A stretch of DNA of 64,000 nt from assembly GCA_964561085.1 (NCBI GenBank), contig CAZLNP010000001.1, positions 75,335 to 139,334 of the forward strand, given 5' to 3'. Origin of the DNA: an uncultured Candidatus Saccharibacteria bacterium. Its GTDB lineage: Bacteria > Patescibacteriota > Doudnabacteria > UBA920. Of this stretch, positions 5,898 to 45,947 are shown piece after piece. The number at the start of each line of letters is the position of its first letter. The first letter of the stretch is position 1. Under the pieces are notes generated by a model, which was given only the letters and a program-made list of their open reading frames with translations, was not told the origin of the DNA and made no database searches. The translations under genes were made by a program, and so were the position numbers.

Positions 5898-6392
5898 CTA
5901 CGCGGCCTTGCGGAATTCTGTTTCTTCTTCTGAATCGTCTGGCTTTGGTTTTTCAGGTCCTGGCCAAACACTTTCTGGAACTTTTATTACGTTGTCATTT
6001 CCTGTTTGATGCGTATACCCATCTTTCTCCATAGACTCTCGGCGAGATGTGATATTGGCAATCCGCACAATACGAGCTAGCTTATGGATTTTATCTTCCA
6101 AATCAGTAATCTTTTTTACTTCCTGCCCCTGATTCGATATCCTGTCTTTGATTTTTGCCCAAAAGGACATAAAAGCCTGCTGTTCTTCTTCCTTTAATGC
6201 ATTAAGCTCCTCTACTGCTTGATCCAACGAGTCGTAGCCTGCGTCCTTTAGAATTTCTAAAGATTTTTGATGTGGACTTAGTTTATCAAAAATATGTTTA
6301 ATAACTTTCTCCGCTGGTTGATCGTGGCTTTCAAACTCCACTACGTTATCTTTTACCTCGCCTGGACTAAACTCTGATCTTTCACCATGCAT
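5898..6392 (-). CDS. hypothetical acidic protein (164 aa), coiled-coil-like
   Basis: ORF from track; 15-nt gap from the trxB-like gene, same strand. Confidence 0.5.
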   Translation of the reverse strand: MHGERSEFSPGEVKDNVVEFESHDQPAEKVIKHIFDKLSPHQKSLEILKDAGYDSLDQAVEELNALKEEEQQAFMSFWAKIKDRISNQGQEVKKITDLEDKIHKLARIVRIANITSRRESMEKDGYTHQTGNDNVIKVPESVWPGPEKPKPDDSEEETEFRKAA

Positions 6393-6407: not shown

Positions 6408-7322
6408 TTATTTTAAATTAGTAAAATAGTTGCTGACAGCCATGGCGGCCTTAGCACCTTCACCAGCTGCGATAATAATCTGTTCACCCCAGGCATCATT
6501 AATGTCTCCAGCTGCAAATATTCCCGGTACGCTGGTTTGCAAATCTTTATCTACCTTAATTTCATTCTTCTCGTTCTTCTCAAGAATATCCGCAAAAGAA
6601 ATACTTGGCTCGTAACCAATCTCTATAAAGACTCCACTGACGGGCAGCTCTTGGTCTGGCTTACCTATTTGCTGAACAGTCATCGCTTCGACATGAGTAG
6701 TGCCAGAAATTTTAGTTATTTGTGCTTGATGATACGCTTTGACATTAGGCAAGCTCATGATTTTATCTCTTACAATACCTTCACCAGTATAATCGTCAGT
6801 CATGTTAATTACATATACTTGACGAGCCACCCTTGATAGTGCGCAAATCGCATCCATTGCAGAGTTACCACCGCCTACCACAGCTACATCTTTACCTTTA
6901 TACAAAGGTCCATCGCAAGTAGCACAAATTGCTACACCTTTTCCATAAAACTCCTCTTCACCAGGAACACCTAAATGACGAGGGTTCTTTCCAGAAGCAA
7001 CTATTACAGATTTAGCATAGTAAACATTCCCTTGTTTATCTTCCAAAACAAAGCTGGTGATATTTTTGTCTAGTTTTACTATCTCTACATCAAGCTTTAC
7101 TTCAAGATCTTCTTTTAAGGCAGCCATGTGTTCCTGGAAACGCAAAGTTAAATCTGCGCCAGAGATCATGCTGAAACCGGTGTAGTTTTCTACATCGGCT
7201 GACCATATCATTTGCCCACCAACAGCCTTAGCAAGCACTAATGTTTTTAGTTTACGGCGAGCTGTATAGATCGCAGCAGTCATTCCTGCTGGTCCTGCGC
7301 CGATTATGATGCAGTCGTACAT
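6408..7322 (-). CDS. Thioredoxin-reductase-like flavoprotein (CATC redox-active disulfide) lacking the canonical NADPH HRRD motif
   Basis: GAGPAG FAD motif, CATCDG active site, GGGNSAMDA second dinucleotide motif; where TrxR has HRRDxxR this protein reads VINMTDDYTGE. Confidence 0.8.
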   Translation of the reverse strand: MYDCIIIGAGPAGMTAAIYTARRKLKTLVLAKAVGGQMIWSADVENYTGFSMISGADLTLRFQEHMAALKEDLEVKLDVEIVKLDKNITSFVLEDKQGNVYYAKSVIVASGKNPRHLGVPGEEEFYGKGVAICATCDGPLYKGKDVAVVGGGNSAMDAICALSRVARQVYVINMTDDYTGEGIVRDKIMSLPNVKAYHQAQITKISGTTHVEAMTVQQIGKPDQELPVSGVFIEIGYEPSISFADILEKNEKNEIKVDKDLQTSVPGIFAAGDINDAWGEQIIIAAGEGAKAAMAVSNYFTNLK

Positions 7323-7331
7323 ATGACTGTA

Positions 7332-8573
7332 TTATACCATCTTCTCTGCGATGCGCTCTAACGCCACAATGTATGCTGCTGTTCTCATTGTAGTATTATG
7401 CTTTTCTTGAGCAGCGCGGACTGCGGCAAAGGCTGCGACCATGTGTTCATCAAGTTTCTTGAGAACATCTTCCTTAGTCCATGTTTCGTTATTCTGGTTC
7501 TGATACCACTCGAAGTAACTTACACATACTCCTCCGCTGTTTGCGAGGATATCTGGCACTACAGTCACACCGTTTTGCGCAAAGATGGCATCTGCTTCTG
7601 GAGTAGTTGGACCATTAGCCATTTCTAGAATAAATTTTGCTTTGACTTTTGCAGCGTTGTCGCCAGTTAAAACGTTTTCAAGTGCTGCTGGCACTAGAAC
7701 ATCGACATCAAGTTCAAGCAATTCTTCATTAGTAATTTCAATGGTACCCTCTAGCCCGCGCAAAGCCTTATTCGCCGCTTTATGCGCTTCTGCCGCAGCT
7801 AAATCTATTCCTTCAGCGTTAAAAATCCCGCCCTTGCTGTCTGACAAAGCAACCACTTTAAAACCATGCTCTTTTACGTACTCTGCTAAGTAAGTCGCTA
7901 CGTTACCGAAACCTTGAATTGCAATAGTCTTTCGGCCTTCTGTTGCAGAAGCGTCTGGCACAAGTCCAGCTGCCAAAGCTTCGCGAAGTACATAGCCACC
8001 ACCAAAACCAGTTGCTTCGGTGCGACCCTGGCTGCCACCATTCTCTACTGACTTACCAGTAATTACACCAGGAGCTTGCGTGCCGGTTTGTTTTTCAAAT
8101 TCATCACGCATCCACGCCATGATCTGTCCGTTAGTATTTACATCAGGCGCAGGCACATCTACTAAGGGTCCAAAGTTGCGGAACATTTGCTTCATGTAAC
8201 CGCGAGATAAACGCTCAAGTTCCCCTTCGCTCAACTCTTTCGGATTCACAATTATTCCACCCTTACCTCCCCCAAAAGGAACGTTAACTACGGCGTTTTT
8301 GAAAGTCATCCAAAAACTTAACGCGCGAACTTCATCTAAGTTTACATCTTGATGATATCTAATTCCGCCTTTGTATGGACCGCGTGCGTTGTTGTGCTGT
8401 GATCGAAACCCAGAAAAAATCTTTTGAGTTCCGTCGTCCATTTGTACTGGAATTGAAACTTCGATGTAACGATCTGGATTCTTTAATTGGTCTACGATTT
8501 TGGCGTCTGCGTTGCTAACTTGTGCCGCAGCATCTAGTTGGGCTTTTGCTGATTCGAAAGGATTGTTTGTCAT
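7332..8573 (-). CDS. gdhA: Glutamate dehydrogenase (NAD(P)+)
   Basis: KGGIRYH...VNVPFGGGKGG...GFGNVA motifs diagnostic for Glu/Leu/Phe/Val dehydrogenase family, 413 aa. Confidence 0.95.
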   Translation of the reverse strand: MTNNPFESAKAQLDAAAQVSNADAKIVDQLKNPDRYIEVSIPVQMDDGTQKIFSGFRSQHNNARGPYKGGIRYHQDVNLDEVRALSFWMTFKNAVVNVPFGGGKGGIIVNPKELSEGELERLSRGYMKQMFRNFGPLVDVPAPDVNTNGQIMAWMRDEFEKQTGTQAPGVITGKSVENGGSQGRTEATGFGGGYVLREALAAGLVPDASATEGRKTIAIQGFGNVATYLAEYVKEHGFKVVALSDSKGGIFNAEGIDLAAAEAHKAANKALRGLEGTIEITNEELLELDVDVLVPAALENVLTGDNAAKVKAKFILEMANGPTTPEADAIFAQNGVTVVPDILANSGGVCVSYFEWYQNQNNETWTKEDVLKKLDEHMVAAFAAVRAAQEKHNTTMRTAAYIVALERIAEKMV

Positions 8574-8602: not shown

Positions 8603-9544
8603 TTACTCTTCTAACGCTTCAAGGTATTTCTCTACGTCTAGTGCAGCTTTACAACCTTCACCGGCAGCAGTAATTGCTTGGCGATAGCGGTGGTCATGAA
8701 CGTCACCAGCAACAAACACACCCGGAATGTTTGTCATGGTAAATTCTTTTGGTTCAATGTAGCCTTTTTCGTTTGTATCGATGCCAGCTTCACGGAATAT
8801 CTTAGTAGCGGGGGTGTGTCCAATCGCTGCGAAGTATCCTTGTGCTTTAATTTCTCTCTCTTCGCCGGTTGCGTTATCTTTTACGCGAATGCCCTCTACG
8901 CTGTTTTCACCCAACACTTCTGTGACAGTAACGTTAGTGACAAACTCAATTTTCGGATTATCTTGCGCTCGCTTAAGCATGATGCGAGAAGCTTTAAATT
9001 CATCACGACGATGAACAACAGTCACGTGAGAAGCGAACTTGGTCAGGAAATTTGCTTCTTCCATGGCGCTATCTCCGCCGCCAATTACCACTACATCTTT
9101 TTCTTTAAAGAAAAAACCATCACAAGTAGCACAAGCACTTACACCTTTACCACGTAGCTTTTGCTCACTTTCTAGGTTAAGCCAATTTGCTTCTGCGCCA
9201 GTGGCGATAATAACAGCCTTCGCCTTATACTCAGTATTAGCTGTTTTAAGCACGAAGGGGTTAGATTTAAAGTCTACCGACAGTACGTCTTCGTAAATCA
9301 TTTTAGTGCCGAAACGTTCCACTTGCTTAGTCATATTAGCCATGAGTTCTGGCCCTTGAATACCTTCTGGAAAGCCTGGGAAATTTTCTACTTCTGTTGT
9401 TAACATGAGCTGACCTCCAGGAGCGATGCCTGCCATTACTGTTGGCTCTAGTTCTGCTCTAGCAGCATACAAAGCTGCAGTTAGTCCCGCAGGTCCCGCA
9501 CCGATGATTATTAGTTTGTGAGTTTCATTTGATGTTGTTTCCAT
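8603..9544 (-). CDS. trxB: Thioredoxin-disulfide reductase (canonical NADPH type)
   Basis: GAGPAG, CATCDG, GGGDSAMEEA and HRRDEFKASRIM (NADPH 2'-phosphate binding) motifs. Confidence 0.9.
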   Translation of the reverse strand: METTSNETHKLIIIGAGPAGLTAALYAARAELEPTVMAGIAPGGQLMLTTEVENFPGFPEGIQGPELMANMTKQVERFGTKMIYEDVLSVDFKSNPFVLKTANTEYKAKAVIIATGAEANWLNLESEQKLRGKGVSACATCDGFFFKEKDVVVIGGGDSAMEEANFLTKFASHVTVVHRRDEFKASRIMLKRAQDNPKIEFVTNVTVTEVLGENSVEGIRVKDNATGEEREIKAQGYFAAIGHTPATKIFREAGIDTNEKGYIEPKEFTMTNIPGVFVAGDVHDHRYRQAITAAGEGCKAALDVEKYLEALEE

Positions 9545-9565: not shown

Positions 9566-9856
9566 CTAATTCTTTTTAGAGTAAATTTTGATGAGTTCTT
9601 CGACCGCAGCTTTACGCTTAGCAGGGTTAGTGCTTTTTGCATCTATGACACATTCGCCTAGGTATCCTTCTAGGATCAAATTGTTCACCTTCTTCATGGC
9701 TTCAATTACGGCGTGGCTTTGATTGATGATATCCATGCAGTAGGCGTCGGTTTCTACCATTGTGGCAACTGCCCGAACATGACCTTCTATGTAACGGAGT
9801 CGTTTTACTAAGTCAGCCTGGTTAGCGGCCGCAACACTGTTAAGTTTTTTTGACAT
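9566..9856 (-). CDS. CsoR/RcnR/FrmR-family (DUF156) metal- or thiol-sensing transcriptional repressor; start re-set to MSKKL (track ORF extends further upstream across the operator)
   Basis: LVKRLRYIEGHVRAV...YCMD...LGEC matches the CsoR-family helix bundle; fingerprint positions appear to be Cys-Tyr-Cys. Confidence 0.75.
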   Translation of the reverse strand: MSKKLNSVAAANQADLVKRLRYIEGHVRAVATMVETDAYCMDIINQSHAVIEAMKKVNNLILEGYLGECVIDAKSTNPAKRKAAVEELIKIYSKKN

Positions 9857-9874
9857 AATTTCTATATTTACTAG

Positions 9875-9891
9875 ACCCCCCTGTGGGGGGT
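9875..9891 (-). promoter_or_regulatory. candidate CsoR-family operator: ACCCCCC-TGT-GGGGGGT inverted repeat overlapping its own promoter
   Basis: Perfect 7-bp GC arms with 3-bp spacer, 19-35 nt upstream of the MSKKL start codon. On the coding strand it sits just downstream of TTGACT-17nt-TATACT (approx 9900-9928). Resembles known CsoR operators, which are G/C-tract palindromes. Confidence 0.5.
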
Positions 9892-9995
9892 ATATATCTA
9901 GTATATGCTCCCCCACTTTTTAAGTCAAACTTGAGAGGTGTTCATATGCATGGTATGATGTGCATGACAATCGCATTCTAAAGCCACTCTGGCTC

Positions 9996-10065: not shown

Positions 10066-13000
10066 TTAGAACCCCAGCACTCCAGCAGCACGGGTCACAA
10101 GAACTTGGGTCTGTTGAAGAAGTTTGTCTGCAGTATTAGCTGCTACTGCTGTAATTGGGTTGTATCCCCAAGAAGATAGGACTTCCATGGAAGGAATACC
10201 AGCTAGAGCGTTGTCTTTAATGACTTGAAGAGTACCACTGTTGTTAATTAGAGTTCCTGATCTGTGGGTAGAGTTAGGATCAGAGATATTGTCTGTTGAA
10301 GTCATGAAAGAGACATCTCCATACAAGGCATTAGCAAAGGAGAAGCCTTGAGCTTTGAACACCTTCTCAGAAACAAATCCTGCTTTCATTCCACCAGTGA
10401 TTAGGTAACAAGTGCCTTTGTCTGTACCACGATCTGAGCAAGTGATTGAGCCATCTCTTGGAGGAATGAATGATCCTACCGGAAGAGTTAGATCAGAGCT
10501 GCGAGCGGGAACTGCATTGCTCCAAGTGTTAAAGCCATATGAAAGGTATGCACCTGCTGAAGTGTAAGGCCTGCGTTTACCATCTGAAGTAAGAGTGTAG
10601 ATGGTTCCAGTCGAGTCTACGATGTTAGTACCTACTGGATGGCGAGTGACAGAGCCGGAGGTTGAGCCAGATGCAGAAGCTGTGCCAAACAGTGCGAACA
10701 TTGAGAAACCGCCTGTTTCGCAAGTCACAGTATTTGCATTTGTATCTACTGTGCAAGGAGCTAGCGAAGACCAAGTTCCTGAGCTATATCGCCAAACCAC
10801 AAGAGATGATTCACTGATACCATCTATCTCATCATCTTCATAAGAGAAAGTTAAAGTAATAGGATCATTAAAAGAAGTTACGGATGTCCCAATTCCTGTT
10901 AAGGCTTTCAAGTCGTATGTGTGGCCATTTACAGGGTTTAACCCTGTAGGCATTCCAGAAGCGATTAATGCATCTGCAGTATTTATTTGCTTAATCTGGA
11001 ATACAGACTCTGCCCCAACAGCTCCAGCAGGGATATCTAATTCAATTCCAGAATCCCCATCTGTTAATTCAACCGTGCCTCCAGTAGCATTAGAAACATT
11101 ATCACCTATTTCACTTTCTACTTCTGCAGAACCAGTACAACCGTCAGTTGTAAATGTTGCACTAGAACTTGAAGTAGAAACAGATGAAGCGTCTACCGAT
11201 ACCACACTGTAGTGGTATGTAGTACAAGCAGCAAGGGAAGAGATTGTCTTTGAGTGTGAAAGTACTCGTGGAGAAGTATCCGTTACTGCGGAGGTCTCTG
11301 TGTGAGTAGAAGTAAGTCCGTATGTTACACCAGTAGAAGCAAGAGAGCCTGTTGTCCAAGTGATAACCGCACTAGTGGTCGCAGGATTAACACTAATAGC
11401 GGAAATTACTGGGCCAGTTGTATCGATTACCAAAGCCTTGTTGGCAGCTAAGTTAGTAGTCGGAACGAAGTTTACCATGGCATGAGCATCAAGATCAGCG
11501 ATGGTTCCAGAAATAGTTTTAACGGTTAAGTCATCGGTCGAATCACCAGCTTGAACTGTGTAATTACAACTTCCACTGGTCGCGCTAGTGACTGTAAAAG
11601 TACAGGTCCTGTCTGTCGCACCAGTTTCCAATGTCACTGTGACGTTGCCAGTTGAAGTAACAGCCTTCGAGAAGGTGACATCAATGTCTATTACTTCACC
11701 AACGCTGTATGTACCATTAGCTTTGTCAGAAGAAACATTAGTAATAGTTGGAGCGGAAGAATCTAGGGTTACAGGGTGATCAAAGTGAACTGCCCAGTTG
11801 TACAAAGTGTTGCTGTACAAAGATGGGTACGGGTCTGTATCACGCAAGTTCCCAGCTGCGCTGCCAGCATTTTGTGCACCAGTGTTTGTTCCAGGCACAC
11901 CTGTATAAGCGTATCTTAAGCGTTGGTTATTGCCTGTTGGAGTACCGCTTAGAGTAACTCTAACTGTATCGGTGTCAACTAACTCAACTGAGCTAATTGT
12001 TGCCGATGAAGTTGAGTCGTAATATTCAAATCCATAGTTTGTGCGGGCACTAACTAGAGTTGTATCAAAAGCTAGTTGCCCTGCAGGGACATGGAAGTCT
12101 GCCAAAATTACGTTCCCTGTACGAGTAACAGTGTCTGGGCTCAATGGGCGCCAAGTCTCATGATCTATAGCAACTTTCTTAATTACTTTCGCATGATACT
12201 CCCCTAACCAACGGGAACTTGCTGCAGTTAAGTGATGTCGATCTGAGTAGCTAAAGAAGTATTTTGGAGCAACTAGTACGATCTCATCTGGATTATCTTC
12301 CGCTGCATACAATTGATAGATTGGGATTTCCGAAGTAGCATCGTTAGCGTAAGAAGACATGAAAGAACTCATCTGGTCGATGAACATGTAAACCTCATTA
12401 CTCTGTCCAGTAATTGCTTTTACATCAGTATCGTAATCGTTCTGCCATTCTTCTAAGTAACCCTGATATGTTGCTCCACTTACATTATTGAAGTTATCAG
12501 TTTCACCATGAATATTAGTTACGCCCATTACACGAGACACTCGGCCAAGAGACAAAGCAGCGCTTTTTGCATTCGTAACTTGGTTCATCGCATTAGTATA
12601 TGGCCCTGTCCCCTTTTTCAGCTGGGAATATGTATAACCACTAACTCCATGGAGCGACATAACTGTATCTAAATCATTGCCGGTATCGTTGAAAGTCAAA
12701 GAGTTTGCAATCGCACTACTCATGGTTTCAACACTGCTTTCTATCAAAGCTGTGAAGCTACCGCCAGCACCCATTCCACCAGAACCACCGGTTAACATTT
12801 TGTTAGAGTAAGGTTGTGTAGTCGAAAGGGCTGGGCTTGCAGCAACACCAACAGACAAACTTTGACCTGTAGACAGAATTTGGTTTAAATAATTGATTGT
12901 AGCAACTTGGCTAGTTGCAGAACTAAGAGTTGCGGATCCAGTTGTCGGTGCAGTTGCACTACCTGGCGTTACTTCAAACTTCAGGTACATGCCAATATCG

Positions 13001-15348
13001 TCTTCATCTACTATATACGTAGTACTAGTAGCGCCAGAAATAGCAGAATAGCTGCCACCAGCGCTTGTAGCAGTTAGCCATCTGAAAGTAGAACCTGATT
13101 CCGAGTTGCCGTTCACGTCTACAAAGGTGTACGTTCCTGTAAGTTGCTCCCCAACTGCTGCATTCCCTGAAATAGCTACACCTGTCGCAGTTGGCGCGGT
13201 TGGAGTTGCAGAAACTGGACGAGCTGTAGCTGTAGATGATGGATCACTTGTACCATTGCTATTAATTCCAGATACGCGGAAGTTATAATTCAAACCGTTA
13301 GTTAATCCTGTAACCGTAGCTCCTGTGGAAGTAGAAGTGCCATCAGAAAAAGTTAACCAGGTCCCAGAAGTACTGAGCTTGTATTCAACTAAGTAATCAG
13401 TAATTGCAGCGCCGTTGTCTGCTCCAGCAGTCCAAGTCAACGCTACCTGTCCGTCACCAGGTGTTGCACCTAAACCAGATGGAGCAGCTGGGCCAGTTGC
13501 GGGTTCTATAATTTGTACATTATCTAAGTCGCTAGTACCAGTACTACTCATTGCACCCAGCCAGAACCCTTCGTCAGTAAATGTGCCAGATGTAATAGTT
13601 GCGCTTGGTGTTCCAGAACCATTTACAAACACGCTCGCACCTCCACCTTGGAGCGCCGTTAAGGTTAAGGTGAATGGAACTCCATTTGTACAAGATGTGA
13701 ATCCGCTCAAAGTTTGAGGTGATGCAGATGGACCGGATCCAGCAACGTTTGACCCACCAGTCCAGTAATACAATTCCCAGTTCGTTGCATTAGCTAAAAG
13801 AATATAAGATGATGTTCCTACTCCAGTGAAAACTAAATCACCATAGCCAATTGCTACTGGGCCCACACCCGAACCACAAGATGACCTAGTAACAGTAACT
13901 GTAATACTTACATCGCCGTTAGTTCTATCATATGTTTGTACTGTACTCAGTCCAGCGCCACCCCATGCACCAGTACCGGTTATATTTAGATCTCCATTTT
14001 GTTGAACGTTTCCAACAGTCCCTCCCGTACCACCTGGATCAAGCTCAGTCCATTTGTCAGTATCAATAGTGGTGCCAGTAAAATCATCTGACATAGCAAA
14101 GGTATTTGGAATACCGTTAGCTGTACTGGAAACAGGGCCAGTTCCTACAGAGTTAGTAGCAGAAACGCGGAAGTTATATGTAGAACCGTTTACTAAGCCA
14201 GTAACTGTTGCCCCAGTTGAGCCTGATGTGCCGTCGGAAAAAGTAGTCCAAGTAGTGGGCTCAGTGGAAAGTTTATACTCTACTATATAGTCAGTAATAG
14301 CCGCGCCGCCGTTGGTAAGAGGTGCGGACCAAGTCAAAGTTGATTGTCCGCTCGTTCCGCTAGATGCAGACAAGCCTTGCGGTGCAGATGGGACACTTAA
14401 CGCGGGAGTTGCGGTCGCTGTACTGGAAGGTACGCCGGTGCCCACCGAGTTAGTCGCAGAGACGCGGAAATTATAGCTCAACCCATTTGTTAAACCGGTT
14501 ACTGTAGTAGCCGCTGTAGTTGATGTACCGTCTGAAAAAGTAGTCCAAGTAGTTGGTTCGCTAGCCAATTTATATTCGACTAAGTAATCAGTAATAGCCG
14601 CCCCACCATTGCTAACAGGAGCTGTCCATGTTAATCCCATTGCAGTGCTGGCAGGTGTTGTTGTAAGTCCAGTTGGAGCGTCAGGGGCCGTCGCAGCACT
14701 TGCGCTAGCAATCACAACGTTATCAATTAACGTAGCTGTGCCGGAATGCCCCGAAAGGAAAAAACCTTTGTTGGTAAAAGTACCGCCGGTCAATGTCGCT
14801 GCCGCGGTGCCACTCCCGTTAATGTATAGAGCAGCGCCACTAGTGGAATCAATAGCGATGCGGGCACTAAAAGCCACGCCGTTGGTACAGCTAAAAGCTG
14901 TGGTAATATTTTCAGCATTACCATTAGCAAGCTGTCGGGAGAAATAAACTGTATTTGATACAACGTACAGAGTATAAGACTGTCCGCCGCCGGTCAACAC
15001 CCCAGGATCTCCATATCCAATACCAAAAATACTACTACCACTAGCGCAAGTCACATCAGCTGTCATCTCTAATCCCCCAACAGACCTATCATATGTATCG
15101 TCAGTAACCAAATAGTTGTTACCCCAAGAAGCAGAACCTGTCATGCTCAAAGACCCATTCTGTTGAATGTTCCCAGAAGTTCCCCCTACGCCACCAGCAT
15201 CTGTCTCATTCCATTTTACTGTATTAATAGTGGTTCCAGTAAAATCATCTGATAAAAGAGTCGATGCCTGGGAAAGATTAAACGTACTAGTAATGATTCC
15301 TGTCACTGCAAGAACTGCTATGAGCGTATATATGGACTTTTTGAACAT
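10066..15348 (-). CDS. Giant secreted surface protein (1760 aa): signal peptide, tandem LamG/ConA-like + fibronectin type III modules, SASA/SGNH-like esterase-like domain, Ig-like and FN3 domains
   Basis: N-terminal MFKKSIYTLIAVLAVTG signal/anchor. Repeated DDFTGTTI(N/D)T.KW modules, each followed by FN3-like PSAP..LTWTAP..GGAAITDY.VEYK...Y.FRVSA.N units. Central region has GQSLSVG, reminiscent of the sialate-O-acetylesterase GQSN motif. Near-identical ~200-bp DNA tandem repeats (approx 14150-14350 vs 14445-14640). Confidence 0.8.
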   Translation of the reverse strand: MFKKSIYTLIAVLAVTGIITSTFNLSQASTLLSDDFTGTTINTVKWNETDAGGVGGTSGNIQQNGSLSMTGSASWGNNYLVTDDTYDRSVGGLEMTADVTCASGSSIFGIGYGDPGVLTGGGQSYTLYVVSNTVYFSRQLANGNAENITTAFSCTNGVAFSARIAIDSTSGAALYINGSGTAAATLTGGTFTNKGFFLSGHSGTATLIDNVVIASASAATAPDAPTGLTTTPASTAMGLTWTAPVSNGGAAITDYLVEYKLASEPTTWTTFSDGTSTTAATTVTGLTNGLSYNFRVSATNSVGTGVPSSTATATPALSVPSAPQGLSASSGTSGQSTLTWSAPLTNGGAAITDYIVEYKLSTEPTTWTTFSDGTSGSTGATVTGLVNGSTYNFRVSATNSVGTGPVSSTANGIPNTFAMSDDFTGTTIDTDKWTELDPGGTGGTVGNVQQNGDLNITGTGAWGGAGLSTVQTYDRTNGDVSITVTVTRSSCGSGVGPVAIGYGDLVFTGVGTSSYILLANATNWELYYWTGGSNVAGSGPSASPQTLSGFTSCTNGVPFTLTLTALQGGGASVFVNGSGTPSATITSGTFTDEGFWLGAMSSTGTSDLDNVQIIEPATGPAAPSGLGATPGDGQVALTWTAGADNGAAITDYLVEYKLSTSGTWLTFSDGTSTSTGATVTGLTNGLNYNFRVSGINSNGTSDPSSTATARPVSATPTAPTATGVAISGNAAVGEQLTGTYTFVDVNGNSESGSTFRWLTATSAGGSYSAISGATSTTYIVDEDDIGMYLKFEVTPGSATAPTTGSATLSSATSQVATINYLNQILSTGQSLSVGVAASPALSTTQPYSNKMLTGGSGGMGAGGSFTALIESSVETMSSAIANSLTFNDTGNDLDTVMSLHGVSGYTYSQLKKGTGPYTNAMNQVTNAKSAALSLGRVSRVMGVTNIHGETDNFNNVSGATYQGYLEEWQNDYDTDVKAITGQSNEVYMFIDQMSSFMSSYANDATSEIPIYQLYAAEDNPDEIVLVAPKYFFSYSDRHHLTAASSRWLGEYHAKVIKKVAIDHETWRPLSPDTVTRTGNVILADFHVPAGQLAFDTTLVSARTNYGFEYYDSTSSATISSVELVDTDTVRVTLSGTPTGNNQRLRYAYTGVPGTNTGAQNAGSAAGNLRDTDPYPSLYSNTLYNWAVHFDHPVTLDSSAPTITNVSSDKANGTYSVGEVIDIDVTFSKAVTSTGNVTVTLETGATDRTCTFTVTSATSGSCNYTVQAGDSTDDLTVKTISGTIADLDAHAMVNFVPTTNLAANKALVIDTTGPVISAISVNPATTSAVITWTTGSLASTGVTYGLTSTHTETSAVTDTSPRVLSHSKTISSLAACTTYHYSVVSVDASSVSTSSSSATFTTDGCTGSAEVESEIGDNVSNATGGTVELTDGDSGIELDIPAGAVGAESVFQIKQINTADALIASGMPTGLNPVNGHTYDLKALTGIGTSVTSFNDPITLTFSYEDDEIDGISESSLVVWRYSSGTWSSLAPCTVDTNANTVTCETGGFSMFALFGTASASGSTSGSVTRHPVGTNIVDSTGTIYTLTSDGKRRPYTSAGAYLSYGFNTWSNAVPARSSDLTLPVGSFIPPRDGSITCSDRGTDKGTCYLITGGMKAGFVSEKVFKAQGFSFANALYGDVSFMTSTDNISDPNSTHRSGTLINNSGTLQVIKDNALAGIPSMEVLSSWGYNPITAVAANTADKLLQQTQVLVTRAAGVLGF

Positions 15349-15917: not shown

Positions 15918-15992
15918 GGCGCTATCGTCTAACGGTTAGGACAGACGGTTTTCATCCGTCAAATCGGAGTTCGATTCTCCGTAGCGCTACCA
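15918..15992 (+). tRNA. tRNA-Glu (anticodon TTC), CCA encoded
   Basis: 7-bp acceptor GGCGCTA/TAGCGCT (G1-U72), D-arm GTCT AACGGTTAGG AC, anticodon stem GACGG/CCGTC with loop TTTTCAT, T-arm CGGAG TTCGATT CTCCG, discriminator A then CCA. Confidence 0.85.
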
Positions 15993-17452
15993 CCTAACAT
16001 TTTATCCCTTTTGGAGATAGGCAAACATTCTTTTTTCCAATTGGTTATTACATTTTTATCACTTAGAGAAAAGTTTTCCACTAAACTTTTCACAAGACGG
16101 CGTCGGGATTCTTCCGACGCTGTTTTGTATGCAATGGTTGGGCTTTTAAGCAGTTTTCCAAGGTTTTCCATTTTCAGCATCGATTCAGCATTTTCAGACT
16201 GTACGCCATTTAATTGTTCAGTATATTCAATTTTTTTGTTTAACAATTTTGACTTCATGGATTGATAATCTTCGCTACTGATACTTTTGTCCAAAAATCG
16301 ATCCATTATATCGTCAAGCTGTTTCTCTACTTTATGAATTTCAAATATCCATTTAGCAGTAAGCTCCCCCTGTTGGCTTTTCAAGTCTTCCCTTAACTGT
16401 CCGATTGCTTTCAAAAACATTACTACTTCTTCATCCGAAAATTCAATACCCTTTAGTTCTTCAAAAAACTGTTCATCTACAAGTTCTTCTAACAAATTAT
16501 ATTTATGTTCTGCGCTGCGGCAGTTGTAGTACTTATAATAAACATTTCTATGTACTTTAGTTGAAGAAATACATCTTAATGGTCTATCGCAGGTAGGACA
16601 ATTAAGCATTCCTTGAAATACATACAACCGTTTTCTTTTATGCTTAAAGCTCTTCTTGTCTAACACTTCCTGAACTTTATCAAATAAAGATTTAGTAATG
16701 ATCGGTTGATGAATACCTTTGAAATCTCCTTTATTAGTCCACCGTACGATTCCGTAGTAAAATGGGTTTCTAAACATTTTATAAAGTGTTTTGTGTTTTA
16801 CCAAACCACCGTCATTATTCCTTAACCCCATTTCTTTTAACTTATCCTGTAAAGGTATAATCCCATACAAACCAGTAGCAAACATTTCGAATGCTTGTTT
16901 TACAAGTCTACTTTGAACAGGGTCAGGTTCTTTGAAACCTTTTTTAGAATCTAAATAACCGATTGGAGCTCTTGATGGAAAAAGTCCTTGTTCTAACATT
17001 CTATCAAATGCTGTATTTACTTTAACCCGCAATCTTTGGCTATAGACTGTTGCCTGCCCCCATAAATCATAAATTCTTGAAAGGTCATCGTCTGATTGAG
17101 TTGTGAGATTTTCAGCAGCAAAGTGAAAGTGATAGCCTTGTTCAATAAGTTTGTAAAAATTTCCAATATCTTGGTAATTCCTTGACGATCTGTCCACGGT
17201 AGCAAAGCAAATTCCAGCTAACTTTTCTTTCTTTAATCTTTGTATTAACATGCCAAACAACTTTCTCCCAGGACGAAAGGAAGATTCTACCCCCTCAAAG
17301 AAGTCAACTATTTCTAACCCTCTCTGTTTTGCATATAGTTCTATTTGTTTCTTTTGAATTTCTGGACTCCAGTTTGTTGCTTGGTCTTTTGAACTGACCC
17401 GTACATAAGCTAAGAATTTATTATTAGATAATTTTTTCATGTTGTCCTTCAT
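15959..17452 (-). CDS. Large serine recombinase (resolvase catalytic domain + recombinase domain + zinc ribbon + coiled coil)
   Basis: AYVRVSSKDQ catalytic serine motif near N-terminus, CPTCDRPLRC...C zinc ribbon, 497 aa; C-terminal codons overlap the tRNA-Glu 3' half. Confidence 0.9.
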   Translation of the reverse strand: MKDNMKKLSNNKFLAYVRVSSKDQATNWSPEIQKKQIELYAKQRGLEIVDFFEGVESSFRPGRKLFGMLIQRLKKEKLAGICFATVDRSSRNYQDIGNFYKLIEQGYHFHFAAENLTTQSDDDLSRIYDLWGQATVYSQRLRVKVNTAFDRMLEQGLFPSRAPIGYLDSKKGFKEPDPVQSRLVKQAFEMFATGLYGIIPLQDKLKEMGLRNNDGGLVKHKTLYKMFRNPFYYGIVRWTNKGDFKGIHQPIITKSLFDKVQEVLDKKSFKHKRKRLYVFQGMLNCPTCDRPLRCISSTKVHRNVYYKYYNCRSAEHKYNLLEELVDEQFFEELKGIEFSDEEVVMFLKAIGQLREDLKSQQGELTAKWIFEIHKVEKQLDDIMDRFLDKSISSEDYQSMKSKLLNKKIEYTEQLNGVQSENAESMLKMENLGKLLKSPTIAYKTASEESRRRLVKSLVENFSLSDKNVITNWKKECLPISKRDKMLGGSATENRTPI

Positions 17453-18176
17453 ATATGTTTCCTTTATATGATATTTTATTTTTATAAATATCGTTAGTTA
17501 ATATTTTTTTAATTGTTGACGGCCACCACCTGTTACCTCCACGCTTTGTTGGTATGCTTCGCAAATTTAGGTATGCAGCAATTTTAGTAAGATTCATTCT
17601 CTTATAGCGTTTTAAGTGAAAGATTTTTCTTACAATATCTGCCTCTGCTTGATTTGTTATCAACTGTCCGTCTTTGCAGTCGTATCCGTAAATTTCTCCT
17701 CCATGCCACCTCCCCTTAGCTGCAGCCGAAGCGCGTCCGTTGGTCAGTCGCATTGTAATCATGGCTCTTTCGAATTCACTAAAAGCACCTATAATTTGCC
17801 TAAACAGTTTACGAGTTGCATCATTACTACCTAAGTCTGGTTCAGTTAGTGAGATTAGCTGTTTATTTAGTTTTATAAACTCTCTTATTAGTCCTTCCTG
17901 GATATAGAGGTCACGGGCTAATCTCGTCAGTGACAAAATTACAACTGCTTTTACTTCGCTATTAACTTCTAAATACTGCATCATTTGTGCCAGCGCTGGC
18001 CTATGTTCCAAACCGCCACTTACACCATCGTCTTTAAACCATTCAACTATTTCTATACCGTTCTTTTTTGCATAATTTGATATTGATTCAACTTGTAATT
18101 CAATGTTGTCATTTTCCGCTTGTAGTGCAGTTGATACTCTGCAATATGCTATCGCTTGCATTTTCGTTCCTTCCAT
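17424..18176 (-). CDS. Serine recombinase, short form (resolvase domain + partial recombinase domain, no zinc ribbon)
   Basis: AIAYCRVSTALQ catalytic motif; 250 aa; 3' end overlaps the start of the 497-aa recombinase by 29 nt. Confidence 0.8.
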   Translation of the reverse strand: MEGTKMQAIAYCRVSTALQAENDNIELQVESISNYAKKNGIEIVEWFKDDGVSGGLEHRPALAQMMQYLEVNSEVKAVVILSLTRLARDLYIQEGLIREFIKLNKQLISLTEPDLGSNDATRKLFRQIIGAFSEFERAMITMRLTNGRASAAAKGRWHGGEIYGYDCKDGQLITNQAEADIVRKIFHLKRYKRMNLTKIAAYLNLRSIPTKRGGNRWWPSTIKKILTNDIYKNKISYKGNIYEGQHEKII

Positions 18177-33581: not shown

Positions 33582-34760
33582 CTAAGATTTGCGAGCGTAA
33601 ATATACGCGGCAAGCAGCGTAGCCACTGGCACTGCCAATATTAAAGTGATGCTTCCCACCAAAGCTCGCACTAATTCTTCAGCCATGAACTCACTATTAA
33701 GTAGAATCCAAAGCGGCTGAGACTTTTGTAAGGTCAGCAGTAAAAACAGTGGCAAGGCTGCGCCGGCATAGACTAAAATTAATGTGTTTATTAGAGAAGC
33801 AATGTGTTCTCTACCAATCGACAACCCTTTTTGATACAAAGCTTTCACGGACAAAGTTTGATCAGTTTTGTGCAACTCTTCTACGGCGGCAGTTTGAGCC
33901 GTTGTGACATCATCCAGAACTCCTAGAACAGAAATCATAATACCAGCAAGTAAAATCCCTTGAAGATTAATACTACCTAAGAAACCTGTCTCTAGAATGA
34001 AGGCATCGCTTTGACCGAACCCAAATATACTAGAAATTTGTACGAACGCGTAAGCAATGGCAGCCGTAATAGCTAAAGAGATAATCGTACTGACAGCAGA
34101 AATTTGAATGCGCTTATTGAACCCATGAGAGATGAACATGCTTACTAACACAATTGCACCTGCTCCAACCAGTGCCACCAAGAACGGATCTTTCCCCGCT
34201 AAAATTTGTGGGGCGATGAAGAAAAGAAGTATACATCCAGTTATTCCTAATCCTATTAGTGAAGTTAAACCACGGCGGCGCCCAACAATTAATGCCAAAG
34301 CTAAAAATACACCAACAACAATGTATAGCCCCGGAAGTCTGTACCGATCTATAATCACATATTCTTCAGTCACTTCCGCGGAAATCGATCCAAGCACGAC
34401 TTTATCGCCGACTTCATATTGCACACTACGAGCTGCATCTAGAATTTGGGTGTTATCTACTAAAACTTCTTCACCTGCATCTTCAGCGTCATCAGTCAGC
34501 CTTACTTTTAGTTGCTGAGTTATGTATTGAGTTCGCTGAACATCATCAACTTGCTCAAAAATAACTTCAATAACTTCCCCTTTAGCATAGCCCTTAAATG
34601 AGGTTGTATCTTGAGAAGCGTTCTCTTGGCTAAAAGATGAGTTACTACTTGGCAATTGCAAAACATAGACCCCAGCCGCGGCAATAATGATAGCAAATAC
34701 AATTAGAAGATGAATTAATCGAAATTGTTTAAACATATTTATAGTGTACATTTTCCGCAA
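33582..34760 (-). CDS. YibE/F-family polytopic membrane protein
   Basis: About 10 predicted TM helices after a periplasmic N-domain; resembles YibE/F family by overall pattern; overlaps the Fur-family gene by 22 nt. Confidence 0.5.
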   Translation of the reverse strand: MRKMYTINMFKQFRLIHLLIVFAIIIAAAGVYVLQLPSSNSSFSQENASQDTTSFKGYAKGEVIEVIFEQVDDVQRTQYITQQLKVRLTDDAEDAGEEVLVDNTQILDAARSVQYEVGDKVVLGSISAEVTEEYVIIDRYRLPGLYIVVGVFLALALIVGRRRGLTSLIGLGITGCILLFFIAPQILAGKDPFLVALVGAGAIVLVSMFISHGFNKRIQISAVSTIISLAITAAIAYAFVQISSIFGFGQSDAFILETGFLGSINLQGILLAGIMISVLGVLDDVTTAQTAAVEELHKTDQTLSVKALYQKGLSIGREHIASLINTLILVYAGAALPLFLLLTLQKSQPLWILLNSEFMAEELVRALVGSITLILAVPVATLLAAYIYARKS

Positions 34761-35170
34761 AGTCCGAACAACTCAAAAGAATGTCCAGTCACTTGCTTAA
34801 AATTTACAGAGTTTTTAATAGCTTTGCTTATGATGGAATCAAGATCACAATTCTCTATGTCTTCCACTTTCCCGCACTGACTACAAATAAAGTGATGATG
34901 ATCCTCTAAACCCGCAAACTCATAATGACCATGTCCATGCTGAAAATTAATTTGTTTTATCAAACCCGCCGCTAAAAACTCTTTGATAGAGCGGTAGACA
35001 GTCGCCATATCTGGAGCAGGTTCAGTGAATTTTCTATAAATCCCTTCTACAGACAGCGGCTTCTTACTCTTTGCCAATATAGACAAAAGCTGGACTTTTG
35101 ATTGAGTCGCCTTGAAACCTGCCTTCCTTAGCAAATCAGCGTATTGATTGTCGATTCTAGGTGTTTTCAT
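34739..35170 (-). CDS. Fur-family metalloregulator (likely Zur given divergent ZIP transporter)
   Basis: wHTH N-domain, HHHFICSQCGKV...C..C metal-site motifs. Confidence 0.8.
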   Translation of the reverse strand: MKTPRIDNQYADLLRKAGFKATQSKVQLLSILAKSKKPLSVEGIYRKFTEPAPDMATVYRSIKEFLAAGLIKQINFQHGHGHYEFAGLEDHHHFICSQCGKVEDIENCDLDSIISKAIKNSVNFKQVTGHSFELFGLCGKCTL

Positions 35171-35203
35171 GTTATTTACATACTAGCATTTAGTTGATCT
35201 AAA

Positions 35204-35245
35204 TGCAAATTACTTGCATTATCATTTTAGATATGATAGTATTGT
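35204..35245. promoter_or_regulatory. candidate Fur/Zur box in divergent fur/ZIP promoter region
   Basis: TGCAAATTACTTGCA palindrome and GCATTATCATTTTAGATATGATAGTATT containing an AATGATAAT-like half site. Confidence 0.3.
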
Positions 35246-35267
35246 TTCAATCAATAATATTTTTCAA

Positions 35268-36146
35268 ATGACAACAATCTATATTTTATTAGCCTCGTTC
35301 GCGGTGATGCTTATGTCTCTGGTAGGCATATTTACCGTGACTCGAGTCTTCCGTGGATGGGCGGAACGAAATCTAAAATACCTGGCAACTTTTGCAACTG
35401 GTGTCTTCATTGTGGTTGCATACAACTTAGTCAAAGAAACTTTTCATAGCGATATTGCTCTCGCTCCCCTACTTGGAATCATGCTAATTGGAGTTCTAAT
35501 TGCTTTTGCGGTAGACAAAGCTATCCCTAACTCTCATCACCACCATGACGATAGCGAGCACCCGGATTCACACAGTAAAGCTGGGGCACAAAGAATCATC
35601 CTCAGCGATACATTACACAACATTACTGATGGGTTTTTAATTGTCCCAGCCTTTTTAGTTGATGTGCATCTAGGATTGCTTACAACTGCAGGCATTATGA
35701 TTCATGAGATAGCGCAAGAAGTTTCAGAATTCTTTGTTCTTAAAAGCGCAGGATATTCGACTAAAAAAGCACTTACCATAAACTTTGTGACATCGGGGAG
35801 TATTCTACTTGGAGTACTAGGAGCACTATTCATTACCAACATTTCTGAGGACATAATTTTCTCTCTACTAGCAGTGGCTGCAGGAATCATTGTTTACACT
35901 ATATTAAAGGATTTAATTCCTTACTCACTCTCTGTCGCTAAAAAAGAAAAGACTTACCTAAAACATCTTGTTGCTGCGCTGGCTGGGATTGCAATCATTG
36001 CCGCGTTAACAACTGCCACTGCAGATACCCATGTTCATTCTGAAGATGAACATGCCCATACTGAGGAAATTCATCTTGAAGAAAATCACTCAGAGGAACC
36101 TAGTGCTGATATAATTCATTCCGAAGAAGATACACATTCTCACTAA
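35268..36146 (+). CDS. ZIP-family divalent-metal (zinc) transporter
   Basis: His-rich loop NSHHHHDDSEHPDSHS, conserved HEIAQE..F motif of ZupT/ZIP TM helices; start re-set to MTTIYILL. Confidence 0.75.
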   Translation: MTTIYILLASFAVMLMSLVGIFTVTRVFRGWAERNLKYLATFATGVFIVVAYNLVKETFHSDIALAPLLGIMLIGVLIAFAVDKAIPNSHHHHDDSEHPDSHSKAGAQRIILSDTLHNITDGFLIVPAFLVDVHLGLLTTAGIMIHEIAQEVSEFFVLKSAGYSTKKALTINFVTSGSILLGVLGALFITNISEDIIFSLLAVAAGIIVYTILKDLIPYSLSVAKKEKTYLKHLVAALAGIAIIAALTTATADTHVHSEDEHAHTEEIHLEENHSEEPSADIIHSEEDTHSH

Positions 36147-44324: not shown

Positions 44325-45947
44325 ATGATCGAACTTTTATTTGCTGTCATAGCAGGCGTTCTGACTGTAGGGGCTCCATGTATTTTACCCATGCTTCCTA
44401 TTCTACTAGGAACAACTGTTGGCCAACAAAGTAAGTGGCGCCCTGCGTTCATTGCCTTAGGGTTTATCATTGCTTTCTCTATTGTAGCATTTTTATTCGG
44501 ATTATTTACTAATATTTTAGGTCTATCCCCTCAGGTCCTACGTACGGTCGCCGTTGTAATGCTGGCCATTTTCGGGGTATTCATGGTTTGGCCTACTCCT
44601 TTTGAAAAACTTACTACTTACTTAACCGGTTTCATAAATGGAGCAAATCGCCTAAGTCAGAAAGCTGGTAACGGAAACCTTGGCGCTTTGGTTCTCGGTC
44701 TGATGCTTGGAGTAATTTGGACCCCTTGTGCAGGGCCAGTGCTTGGTAGCATCTTAACATTAATAGCAACAAAACAAGACATAGTAAAAGCTGGACTTCT
44801 TTTGCTTGCTTACGCAATCGGCGCCGGTATTCCCCTTCTACTTGTTGGATACGGTGGCCAGTACGTCACTACTAAAGTTCGCTTCTTTGCTCAATATGCT
44901 CGCCGTATTCAGCAAGGGTTTGGTATTTTAATTCTACTTTTAGCTGGAGCGATATACTTCCAATACGATACAGTTATTCAAGCAAAGATTTTGCAGTATG
45001 TTCCAGTTCCAAATATAGAATTACCTGGCAGCGAAAAAGAACAAAGAGAAAGTGGTATTGGGCAGTATGGCGCCGCGCCTGAATTTACAGGAATAACAAA
45101 GTGGTTAAACGGTGATGAACAAAAGATTGCTGATTTAAAGGGTAAAGTAGTCTTAATAGATTTCTGGACTTACTCTTGTATTAACTGTGTCCGAACTTTA
45201 CCAAATGTTACTGCATGGTACGACAAATATAAGAATGACGGGCTAGTAGTAATCGGCGTTCATACTCCTGAATTTGCTTTTGAAAGGGAGACCAGTAATG
45301 TTGAGAGGGCAATTGATCGTTTTAACATTAACTACCCTGTCGCCCAAGATAATGACTATGCCACATGGAATGCTTACTCAAACAATGCTTGGCCAGCAAG
45401 CTACCTAATAGATAAAGAAGGTAATATTGTTTACAAGCATTTTGGTGAAGGTAACTATGATGTGACGGAGAACAATATCCGTAAATTGCTTGGCCTTGAA
45501 GGCGGTACTGAAACGAAAGTTGAACTTCCCAACTTTAGAGCCATTCAAACACCAGAAATTTACTTTGGATTAAGTCGCCAAGAATACATTGCTAACAACG
45601 AACGCATTAGTGGAGACGCCCAACAACTAGAGCTACCAGCTGAAATTCCAAGCAATCAATTCGCTGTATCAGGTAATTGGAAATTTAATGCTGAGTCAGC
45701 GAAGCTAGTTAGCGGTCCCGGCAAAATCAAACTGCAGTTCAATGCGAGTAAGGTTTACATGGTTGCCCAATCTGTGGCATCACCCGTAACTCTGCGTATT
45801 CTGGTAGACGAGCAGTTTGTAAAAGAAATTACTGTGTCTGGATCTGATATATACACCCTGTTCGAGTCCGAAGAATATAAAGATCGCACTCTGGAAATAG
45901 AAATCCCACCAAGTGATTTTGAAGCCTTTACGTTCACATTCGGATAA
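44325..45947 (+). CDS. DipZ-like thiol:disulfide interchange protein (CcdA/DsbD transmembrane domain fused to TlpA-like thioredoxin domain and C-terminal beta-rich domain)
   Basis: Paired Cys in TM region (GAPCILP, WTPCAGP), periplasmic thioredoxin fold with WTYSCINCVRTLP. Confidence 0.75.
   Translation: MIELLFAVIAGVLTVGAPCILPMLPILLGTTVGQQSKWRPAFIALGFIIAFSIVAFLFGLFTNILGLSPQVLRTVAVVMLAIFGVFMVWPTPFEKLTTYLTGFINGANRLSQKAGNGNLGALVLGLMLGVIWTPCAGPVLGSILTLIATKQDIVKAGLLLLAYAIGAGIPLLLVGYGGQYVTTKVRFFAQYARRIQQGFGILILLLAGAIYFQYDTVIQAKILQYVPVPNIELPGSEKEQRESGIGQYGAAPEFTGITKWLNGDEQKIADLKGKVVLIDFWTYSCINCVRTLPNVTAWYDKYKNDGLVVIGVHTPEFAFERETSNVERAIDRFNINYPVAQDNDYATWNAYSNNAWPASYLIDKEGNIVYKHFGEGNYDVTENNIRKLLGLEGGTETKVELPNFRAIQTPEIYFGLSRQEYIANNERISGDAQQLELPAEIPSNQFAVSGNWKFNAESAKLVSGPGKIKLQFNASKVYMVAQSVASPVTLRILVDEQFVKEITVSGSDIYTLFESEEYKDRTLEIEIPPSDFEAFTFTFG

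Follow-up and report, generated by a model that had tools for sequence, protein, structure and literature searches.

The 64,000-nucleotide stretch analysed here (the window; contig CAZLNP010000001.1, positions 75,335 to 139,334) comes from an uncultured Candidatus Saccharibacteria bacterium that GTDB places in the Doudnabacteria of the Patescibacteriota. It encodes a flavoprotein of 304 amino acids (aa) that resembles thioredoxin reductase (TrxR) and combines an intact dinucleotide pyrophosphate loop with a conserved acidic segment in place of the arginines that mark NADPH-dependent thioredoxin reductases (NTRs). The gene belongs to a run of six genes on one strand with gaps of 9-37 nt: a csoR-like gene, trxB, the glutamate dehydrogenase gene gdh, the trxB-like gene considered here and two unknown open reading frames (ORFs). 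Both reductase genes lie on the minus strand, and plus-strand translation of the query region gives stops only. The protein contains, in order, the pieces MYDCIIIGAGPAGMT...GKGVAICATCDGPLYKGKDVAVVGGGNSAMDAICALSRVARQVYVINMTDDYTGEGIV...AAGDINDAWGEQIIIAAGEGAKAAMAVSNYFTNLK, and its principal features are the following.

6408..7322, minus strand: gene for the TrxR-like flavoprotein disulfide reductase (304 aa), from the ORF, Pfam and NCBIfam matches and an AlphaFold2 model
7284..7301, minus strand: FAD-binding GxGxxG motif GAGPAG, residues 8-13, read from the sequence
6915..6926, minus strand: redox-active CATC (C133, C136), from sequence and alignment
6849..6875, minus strand: dinucleotide pyrophosphate loop GGGNSAMDA, residues 150-158, kept (sequence and alignment)
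6780..6806, minus strand: N173-M-T-D-D-Y-T-G-E181 in place of HRRDxxR(A) at the 2'-phosphate site, from ungapped alignments
6480..6491, minus strand: W278-G-E-Q281 beside the GD motif of the FAD domain, from the family alignment

More than 120 clusters (at 90% identity) in a large protein database are 62-98% identical to this protein, and nearly all have 304 aa; a set of 121 such members is used as the family throughout. Residues G8, G10, P11, A12 and G13 of the FAD motif are invariant across the family, E. coli TrxB and AhpF, and C133, A134, T135, C136 and D137 are invariant within the family. The CxxC region, with C133 and C136, reads GKGVAICATCDGPLY, and its CATC is followed by D-G-P-L-Y where canonical TrxB has D-G-F-F. 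This PL state is common to AhpF and to relatives linked to glutaredoxin-like (Grx-like) or PDO-like redoxin genes. The GGGNSAMD loop ranks among the best conserved stretches of the nucleotide domain: G150, G152, S154 and D157 are the same in every member, and G151, N153 and A155 in at least 90% of members. Relative to the NTR consensus GGGxxAxE, its Glu is changed to Asp. A GKG element is also present and is conserved in the family alignment. The FAD motif, the GGGNSAMDA loop and the CATC dithiol that the sequence-only reading had assigned to this gene are thus all in place.

The 2'-phosphate site is where the protein departs from the NTRs. HMMER comparison with PDB chains and MAFFT alignment with E. 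coli TrxB, the C-terminal module of E. coli AhpF and the TrxB of the window are both free of gaps over residues about 105-200, and they set N173-M174-T175-D176-D177-Y178-T179 opposite H175-R176-R177-D178-G179-F180-R181 of E. coli TrxB. Residues 169-182 of the query are VYVINMTDDYTGEG, and the aligned segments compare as follows.

E. coli TrxB: HRRDGFR
TrxB of the window: HRRDEFK
E. coli AhpF: EFAPEMK
TrxR-like reductase: NMTDDYT

The positions equivalent to R176, R177 and R181 (query residues 174, 175 and 179) are basic in 0, 1 and 0 of the 121 family members. Residues 176, 177 and 181 are acidic in 91/121, 75/121 and 121/121, respectively; N173 occurs in 115 members, G180 in 120 and Glu or Asp at 181 in all 121. 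With this near absence of basic residues and the conserved acidic loop, HRR has given way to another motif that is itself conserved, approximately [VI]-N-[IMV]-[NT]-[DE]-[DEQ]-[LFY]-x-G-[ED], and that shows no decay and is no quirk of one sequence. The replacement of HRRD..R had been noted from the single sequence and now extends to the whole family. Recovery of the 2'-phosphate arginines by re-gapping had been named beforehand as its refutation, and none was recovered in the ungapped alignments. Nor could they be, because the nearby basic residues (K/R164, K/R185 and K187) are already matched by counterparts in E. coli TrxB and AhpF. These motifs support the view that the enzyme would not be an NADPH-specific TrxR.

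A second, redundant thioredoxin reductase that uses NADPH, or NADH and NADPH equally, through non-classical contacts would be one way to account for such a protein. Its pyrophosphate loop and overall fold are intact, its top PDB match is the NADPH-dependent NTR of M. mazei, and the three conserved basic residues just named lie close to the motif. However, the match of those residues in TrxB and AhpF means that they are not extra, the 2'-phosphate positions are basic in only one member at one site, and the two or three acidic residues of the loop would repel a 2'-phosphate. The FF pair that contacts thioredoxin is also replaced by PL, and the score against the NCBIfam TRX_reduct model (TIGR01292) is 296.1 bits, below the equivalog cut-off of 343.45. 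We consider this explanation quite improbable.

The remaining domain searches and the structural model describe a familiar enzyme. Pfam Pyr_redox_2 matches at 1.4e-47, and the NCBIfam AhpF model (TIGR03140) gives 269.7 bits, below its cut-off of 502.9. An AlphaFold2 model from a 65-sequence alignment has a mean pLDDT of 89, and a Foldseek search of the PDB returns S. solfataricus TrxR-B3 as the best match (TM 0.92), followed by AhpF (0.91) and several bacterial NTRs (0.90). The model superimposes on L. lactis TrxR with a TM score of 0.87 in the flavin-oxidising (FO) state and 0.67 in the flavin-reducing (FR) state. It predicts an ordinary two-domain TrxR/AhpF fold with an FAD site in the flavin-oxidising conformation, and because it fits FO-state crystal structures better than FR-state ones, the CATC disulfide is predicted to lie next to the flavin. 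Helix 285-303 is the last element of the model, with no added C-terminal tail, and the aligned protein stops a few residues short of E. coli TrxB. Near this end, W-G-[ED]-Q occurs in all family members, and position 280 is Glu or Asp in 121/121. In most relatives the conserved Gln is preceded by Lys or Arg (YRQ in TrxB, YKQ in AhpF, EKQ in the sister clade described below), so that the acidic residue 280 may leave room for altered flavin chemistry. The protein is best explained as a homodimer-type, low-molecular-weight flavoprotein disulfide reductase.

Members of the family are labelled Patescibacteria group, Candidatus Doudnabacteria or simply bacterium, and the JGI annotation names them AhpF or NADH-dependent peroxiredoxin subunit F. 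The best match among 50%-identity representatives is only 50% identical, and therefore the family is essentially one 50%-identity cluster. A scan of GTDB genomes with the family alignment gave, among the matches listed, only relatives at or below 50% identity and no close family members. As far as it has been sampled, this is a subfamily confined to the Patescibacteria. An HRR-like motif is missing from 115 of its 150 nearest representatives, and the GGG loop is present in 124 of the 150; proteins without HRR that keep the loop are the majority state in this region of sequence space. Asn at the end of strand beta-2 is common among the relatives, and no characterised enzyme with this residue there was found in the literature that could be searched.

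A rough neighbour-joining tree of the family, 80 relatives from GTDB genomes and the E. coli references places the family as sister to a Saccharibacteria group at 44-50% identity (L010, L011 and L020), whose loops read VNITDTLTGDE, INNTDELTGDE and INITKELTGDA. Both lie inside a large CxxC-D-[GA]-P-L branch (the PL branch) that also holds the AhpF C-terminal module. The canonical FF-type TrxBs, including that of the window, fall outside it. HRR-bearing members also occur inside the PL branch, so the motif was either lost several times or carried by ancestors of the branch. The family forms an uncharacterised subfamily within a known kind of enzyme, the AhpF-like branch of the TrxR family. Recent duplication of the nearby trxB as its origin is ruled out by the 35% identity of the two proteins and their different branches. 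The sequence-only reading had described two TrxB paralogs flanking gdhA; gdh does lie between them, but they are not recent paralogs.

Several relatives show other arrangements of the same module. N-terminal extensions of 80-110 aa occur in P0123, P0131, P0149, P0167 and others (390-425 aa in all). At L041 6740-7909 the extension matches a glutaredoxin-like protein, an apparent natural Grx-reductase fusion, or 'mini-AhpF'. In the Anaerolineales (L069, L070, L079 and L082) a reductase without HRR, with an AhpF-like VEFLDH, stands directly beside a gene of the HRRD TrxB type, and in L064 a reductase without HRR likewise adjoins a canonical TrxB-type gene. Pairs of the two reductase types arise repeatedly, in other phyla too.

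The electron donor was approached through similarity scores and motifs. T. acidophilum TrxR (TaTrxR), Thermosipho TrxR and the clostridial flavin thioredoxin reductase that depends on ferredoxin (FFTR) were compared by bit scores and published motif descriptions. The family profile scores as follows.

4ZN0, M. mazei NTR: 264 bits
AhpF, NADH-specific: 239-241 bits
7JYP, Thermosipho TrxR: 229 bits
3CTY, TaTrxR of T. acidophilum, NADH: 223 bits
5J60, GvFFTR: 178 bits
6GNA-D, clostridial FFTR: 134-140 bits
5NII, DvTRi: 115 bits

The single sequence behaves similarly in HMMER, with 99-109 bits to the clostridial FFTR chains 6GNA/C/D against 218 to NTR, 54 bits to the DDOR structure 5JRI and 63-86 bits to chains of TrxR-like ferredoxin-NADP+ reductases. 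In the published enzymes the GGGxxAxE pyrophosphate motif is highly conserved in both the NADPH-type TR1 and the NADH-type TR3, and the NADH-using DvTR3 retains it (PMC5627308). DvTRi, which is NAD(P)H-independent, has a degenerate GEGxxAxN and TQ/NGK instead of HRRD, and conservation of the motif is weaker in C. pasteurianum FTR and in M. jannaschii DFTR (PMC5627308). GxGxxA/G is missing from cyanobacterial FFTR and from DDOR, which lacks the thioredoxin (Trx)-binding motifs as well (PMC9025218), and the FFTR-type TrxB1 and TrxB4 of C. difficile lack both NAD(P)H motifs (PMC10880999). Cyanobacterial FFTR further requires a C-terminal tail with a Trp stacked on the flavin (PMC8154056). By comparison, HRR is absent from T. 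acidophilum TrxR and from T. maritima TR (TmTR), which yet use NADH (PMC6262447, PMC5627308). The sequence-only reading had treated loss of HRRD with retention of GxGxxA as a pattern of ferredoxin- or flavodoxin-dependent or otherwise non-NADPH enzymes. For the ferredoxin or flavodoxin type this does not hold, as the published nucleotide-independent enzymes lose or degrade the pyrophosphate motif too. Its proposal of a donor other than NADPH agrees with the missing 2'-phosphate arginines, the acidic loop and the missed TRX_reduct cut-off, but a ferredoxin or flavodoxin in that role is not favoured.

A TrxR that has become independent of pyridine nucleotides, convergent with FFTR, DvTRi or DFTR, would receive electrons on its FAD from ferredoxin, flavodoxin or another low-potential carrier, and its former nucleotide domain would only bear the CxxC. 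FFTRs (6GNA-D, 5J60) and DvTRi (5NII) are, like the query, TrxR homologs with CxxC and no NADPH arginines, and DvTRi provides a precedent of a homolog whose donor is still unknown (PMC5627308). The family-wide loss of the entire HRRxxxR, the missing Glu that usually binds NADH at the end of beta-2 and the acidic residue 280, which might change the flavin environment, would fit such an enzyme. However, GGGNSAMD is kept in the query and is lost or degraded in FFTR, DDOR, TRi, CpFTR and MjDFTR (PMC9025218, PMC5627308, PMC10880999), and the C-terminal Trp tail of cyanobacterial FFTR/DTR has no aromatic counterpart in the query (PMC8154056). Compared individually, DvTRi has TQ/NGK and GEGxxAxN where the query has NMTD and GGGNSAMD (PMC5627308), DDOR lacks the GxGxxA/G and Trx-binding motifs represented in the query by GxGxxA and GKG (PMC9025218), and the TrxR-like ferredoxin-NADP+ reductases (TRLF/FdR) have no CxxC (PMC5627308) in place of its CATC. 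All three structurally known independent types are much less similar to the query than NTR, AhpF and TaTrxR are, and inspection at the level of gene neighbourhoods, as opposed to whole genomes, turned up no ferredoxin or flavodoxin gene. Independence from pyridine nucleotides is possible but unlikely.

Because GGGNSAMD is kept, a tail is absent and similarity is higher to NTR, AhpF and TaTrxR, the protein groups with the nucleotide-using enzymes, and because the loop is arginine-free and acidic, NADPH is disfavoured among them. The donor is likely to be other than NADPH, and NADH appears a better guess than ferredoxin or flavodoxin. The canonical NTRs (E. coli TrxB, 4ZN0 and the window TrxB) share the fold, FAD site, CATC, GKG and pyrophosphate loop with the query but differ in having HRRxxxR and FF. 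The NADH-dependent TaTrxR (3CTY), TmTR and DvTR3 lack HRRxxxR as the query does (PMC6262447, PMC5627308), and DvTR3 keeps GGGxxAxE (PMC5627308) where the query keeps GGGNSAMD; they come from other lineages, are not its nearest PDB matches, and their loops were compared by description only. The C-terminal module of E. coli/Salmonella AhpF offers a closer likeness, with 35% identity, a TM score of 0.91, CxxC-D-G-P-L, the GGGNS loop, no HRR and a common QIIIA[AT]GEGAKA. The second and third of the three acidic positions in AhpF EFAPEMKAD align with query D177 and E181. Differences from AhpF are that the query lacks the N-terminal double-Trx-fold domain, aligning to AhpF residues 213-519 only, and has CATC rather than CPHC, Asn rather than Glu at the end of beta-2, and Glu rather than Lys before the conserved Gln.

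The replacement of FF by PL bears on the acceptor. The FF pair is a listed Trx-binding motif in the papers on TrxR signatures, and in the query it has become PL, as in AhpF, while GKG stays. Genes beside PL-branch relatives suggest what such enzymes reduce. In the sister group (L010, L011 and L020) a Cp9/YruB-type glutaredoxin-like gene with CVFC lies directly downstream of the reductase, and genes of this kind lie upstream of the reductase in Dehalococcoidia, Bacillota and Actinomycetota; the glutaredoxin-like proteins of all these lineages have 76-86 aa (Pfam Glutaredoxin; CVFC, CPWC, CPYC or CAYC). Many other members of the branch have a Grx-like or PDO-like gene beside the reductase. Two-domain thioredoxin-like proteins of 213-222 aa adjoin the reductase in L034, L035 and L038, and genes with a Pfam rubrerythrin domain lie just downstream at L017 7238-8264, L018 8257-8787 and L033 7921-8406. 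Most HRR-bearing members of the branch from the candidate phyla radiation (CPR) adjoin WCGPC thioredoxins of 104-108 aa. In Dehalococcoidia, one or two such rubrerythrin-domain genes come after the reductase without HRR and its Grx-like gene, an arrangement that suggests a module for defence against peroxide.

The small glutaredoxin-like proteins carry the JGI label 'glutaredoxin-like YruB-family', and a database search with that of the sister clade gave 1522 matches, of which none among the 120 listed sits on a contig equal in length to one that carries a family member. YruB is Cp9 of C. pasteurianum, where, according to PMC3720550, which cites Reynolds et al. 2002, electrons pass from the NADH-dependent TrxR-like Cp34 to Cp9 and on to the peroxiredoxin Cp20. 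Cp34/Cp9/Cp20 is the closest characterised analogue. Cp34 is a stand-alone TrxR homolog of about 300 aa, as the query is; the query has CxxC and no NADPH arginines, and it shares a branch with reductases that adjoin Cp9/YruB-type genes. Unlike the Cp34 system, neither the query nor six other family loci have a Cp9-like or peroxiredoxin gene nearby. The comparison with Cp34 is by description, and NADH use by the query is predicted from motif logic only. By analogy, its partner would be a non-canonical Trx-fold redoxin encoded outside the window.

Searches for this partner close to the gene gave negative results. A tblastn search of the 64-kb window with E. coli TrxA and NrdH, a CPR Trx and three Grx-like proteins gave no cytoplasmic match, and no Cp9/YruB-type gene appeared there or in L006-L009. 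No redoxin domain was called beside the reductase gene in L090-L092, and no AhpC or peroxiredoxin gene was found in the family neighbourhoods examined. The downstream 164-aa and 207-aa ORFs were rejected as partners: the 164-aa product has no Cys, neither has a family match, and they are not conserved across lineages. The sole redoxin domain found in the window belongs to a 540-aa fusion of a DsbD/CcdA-type membrane part, Redoxin/AhpC-TSA (CINC) and Thioredoxin_10 (44325..45947, plus strand), accompanied by a MarR-family gene (43770-44252, minus strand). DsbD/CcdA proteins need cytoplasmic reducing power, so this fusion is a possible consumer of either reductase.

The lack of an adjacent partner gene in seven family loci would also fit an enzyme that acts mainly as an NADH oxidase or diaphorase, scavenging O2 or directly reducing small disulfides or persulfides with no dedicated protein partner. 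The top structural match is TrxR-B3 of S. solfataricus, a species from which, according to a title cited in PMC7278568, an enzyme was isolated as an NAD(P)H oxidase that later proved to be a TrxR; TmTR reduces 5,5'-dithiobis-(2-nitrobenzoic acid) (DTNB) directly (PMC5627308). The nearby two-Cys CsoR-family regulator would suit thiol or persulfide stress. On the other side, CxxC is conserved together with GKG, an element that the literature connects with redoxin binding, and redoxin genes are in tight linkage with the reductase genes of the sister clade and of many relatives. Oxidase activity is, moreover, usually a side reaction in the TrxR family. This explanation seems very improbable to us.

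The genes and regulatory elements around the reductase are listed below.

9928..9900, minus strand: promoter-like TTGACT-17-TATACT from a promoter scan, with the palindrome just downstream
9875..9891, minus strand: palindrome ACCCCCC-ACA-GGGGGGT, candidate operator of the CsoR-like repressor, conserved upstream of csoR-like
9566..9856, minus strand: gene for a CsoR/RcnR-family repressor (96 aa, counted from the ATG at 9856), Pfam Trns_repr_metal 3.7e-23
8603..9544, minus strand: canonical NADPH-type TrxB (313 aa), TIGR01292 414.4 bits, above 343.45
7332..8573, minus strand: glutamate dehydrogenase gene gdh (413 aa), separated by 9 nt from the TrxR-like gene downstream of it, Pfam ELFV_dehydrog_N and ELFV_dehydrog
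7331..7339, minus strand: extended -10-like element TGGTATAAT, 8 nt upstream of the TrxR-like ATG, where it overlaps the stop codon of gdh, a consensus match only
5898..6392, minus strand: downstream ORF (164 aa) with no Pfam or NCBIfam match, on the same strand as the query

The TrxB of the window carries CATCDGFFF, GGGDSAMEEA and VVHRRDEFKASR (HRRDEFK), and these motifs with its above-threshold score confirm its earlier description as an NADPH-type enzyme. The gdh product, a Glu/Leu/Phe/Val-type dehydrogenase, scores 504 bits against NCBIfam GdhA_Arch, under the cut-off. The 164-aa ORF is probably cotranscribed with the TrxR-like gene; it has a homolog only in L006, and unrelated genes take its place in the other lineages examined. 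The gene order csoR-like/trxB/gdh/.../trxB-like is found in six of the seven lineages. It continues into efp-S18-ssb-S6-ychF in L006, L007/L008, L009, L091 and L092, where the reductases are 65-84% identical. In L090 (63% identity) only trxB and the trxB-like gene remain near each other. Several lineages have an opposite-strand gene between gdh and the trxB-like gene.

A TGnTAnAAT element precedes the reductase ATG by 6-8 nt in six of seven family lineages (L006, L007, L009, L091 and L092 included) and also in L020, which suggests that the TrxR-like gene may have its own promoter and a nearly leaderless transcript. The csoR-like gene has a different candidate control element. The window and L001, L006, L007, L008 and L009 each have the palindrome ACCCCCC-N3-GGGGGGT once, in every case upstream of csoR-like. 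In an alignment of four lineages the repressor has two invariant Cys 29 residues apart, and it has Tyr at the position of the Cu-ligand His of CsoR. It may be a thiol or persulfide sensor and not a copper sensor.

Other parts of the window contain genes of different kinds. Two adjacent large serine recombinase genes (Resolvase and Recombinase domains) occupy 15959-18176 on the minus strand and lead, to about 26200, into several unknown ORFs and the genes for a DUF4238 protein and a methyltransferase; this region looks like an integrated mobile element. Two giant minus-strand ORFs, of 1760 aa (10066-15348) and 3653 aa (52907-63868), are probably cell-surface proteins, and the first has a hydrophobic signal-like N-terminus and repeated segments. 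A metal-homeostasis cluster at 33582-36146 encodes a YibE/F-like membrane protein, a Fur-family regulator and a ZIP transporter.

Our preferred reading, of moderate confidence, is that the TrxR-like protein belongs to the AhpF/Cp34-like branch as a disulfide reductase with a preference for NADH and that, beside the NADPH-dependent TrxB, it reduces a Trx-fold redoxin of non-classical type. By motif logic, its nucleotide domain would still bind pyridine nucleotide with a preference for NADH, and N173 together with D176/D177 would replace the ribose-binding Glu of AhpF. Hydride would pass from NADH to FAD and then to C133/C136. After domain rotation, the dithiol would reduce a Trx-fold redoxin other than a classical WCGPC thioredoxin, the likeliest acceptor being a glutaredoxin-like protein of the Cp9/YruB type whose gene would lie elsewhere in the genome. 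The enzyme would work beside TrxB and tap the NADH pool for disulfide reduction, for which the adjoining glutamate dehydrogenase could be a plausible local source of reduced nucleotide.

Several observations weigh against this NADH-based reading. N173 aligns with the Glu of AhpF LLEF, and the end of beta-2 is Asn, not Glu or Asp, in 115/121 family members, so that NADH would be recognised in an atypical way. Retention of the pyrophosphate loop might have purely structural reasons, and Glu/Asp280 in place of the usual Lys/Arg could reflect an altered flavin environment and a different donor. No redoxin gene adjoins the query, and seven family loci have none within 7-8 kb of the reductase gene. 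The reductase gene has an apparent promoter of its own in most lineages, sometimes behind an opposite-strand insert, and, with the flanking efp-S18-ssb-S6-ychF block conserved as well, its adjacency to gdh and trxB may reflect inherited gene order. A more radical proposal is that the Asn-capped acidic beta-2 loop and Glu280 would define a new cofactor class, with an unusual NADH mode or a non-NAD(P)H donor, and that the enzyme would form with TrxB, gdh and the CsoR-like repressor a glutamate-fuelled, thiol-stress-responsive module specific to these reduced-genome bacteria. We regard this as improbable.

The ultra-small Patescibacteria have a minimal redox metabolism, and their thiol upkeep is poorly known. 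If the preferred NADH-based reading is true, a conserved second reductase that draws on a non-NADPH nucleotide pool would show how the thiol-reducing load is spread in these cells. Because loss of HRR with GxGxxA kept is the majority state among the nearest representatives, relatives without HRR should not be annotated as NADPH TrxR, as AhpF or, by default, as ferredoxin-dependent. The donor of one member would calibrate the annotation of many mis-annotated sequences.

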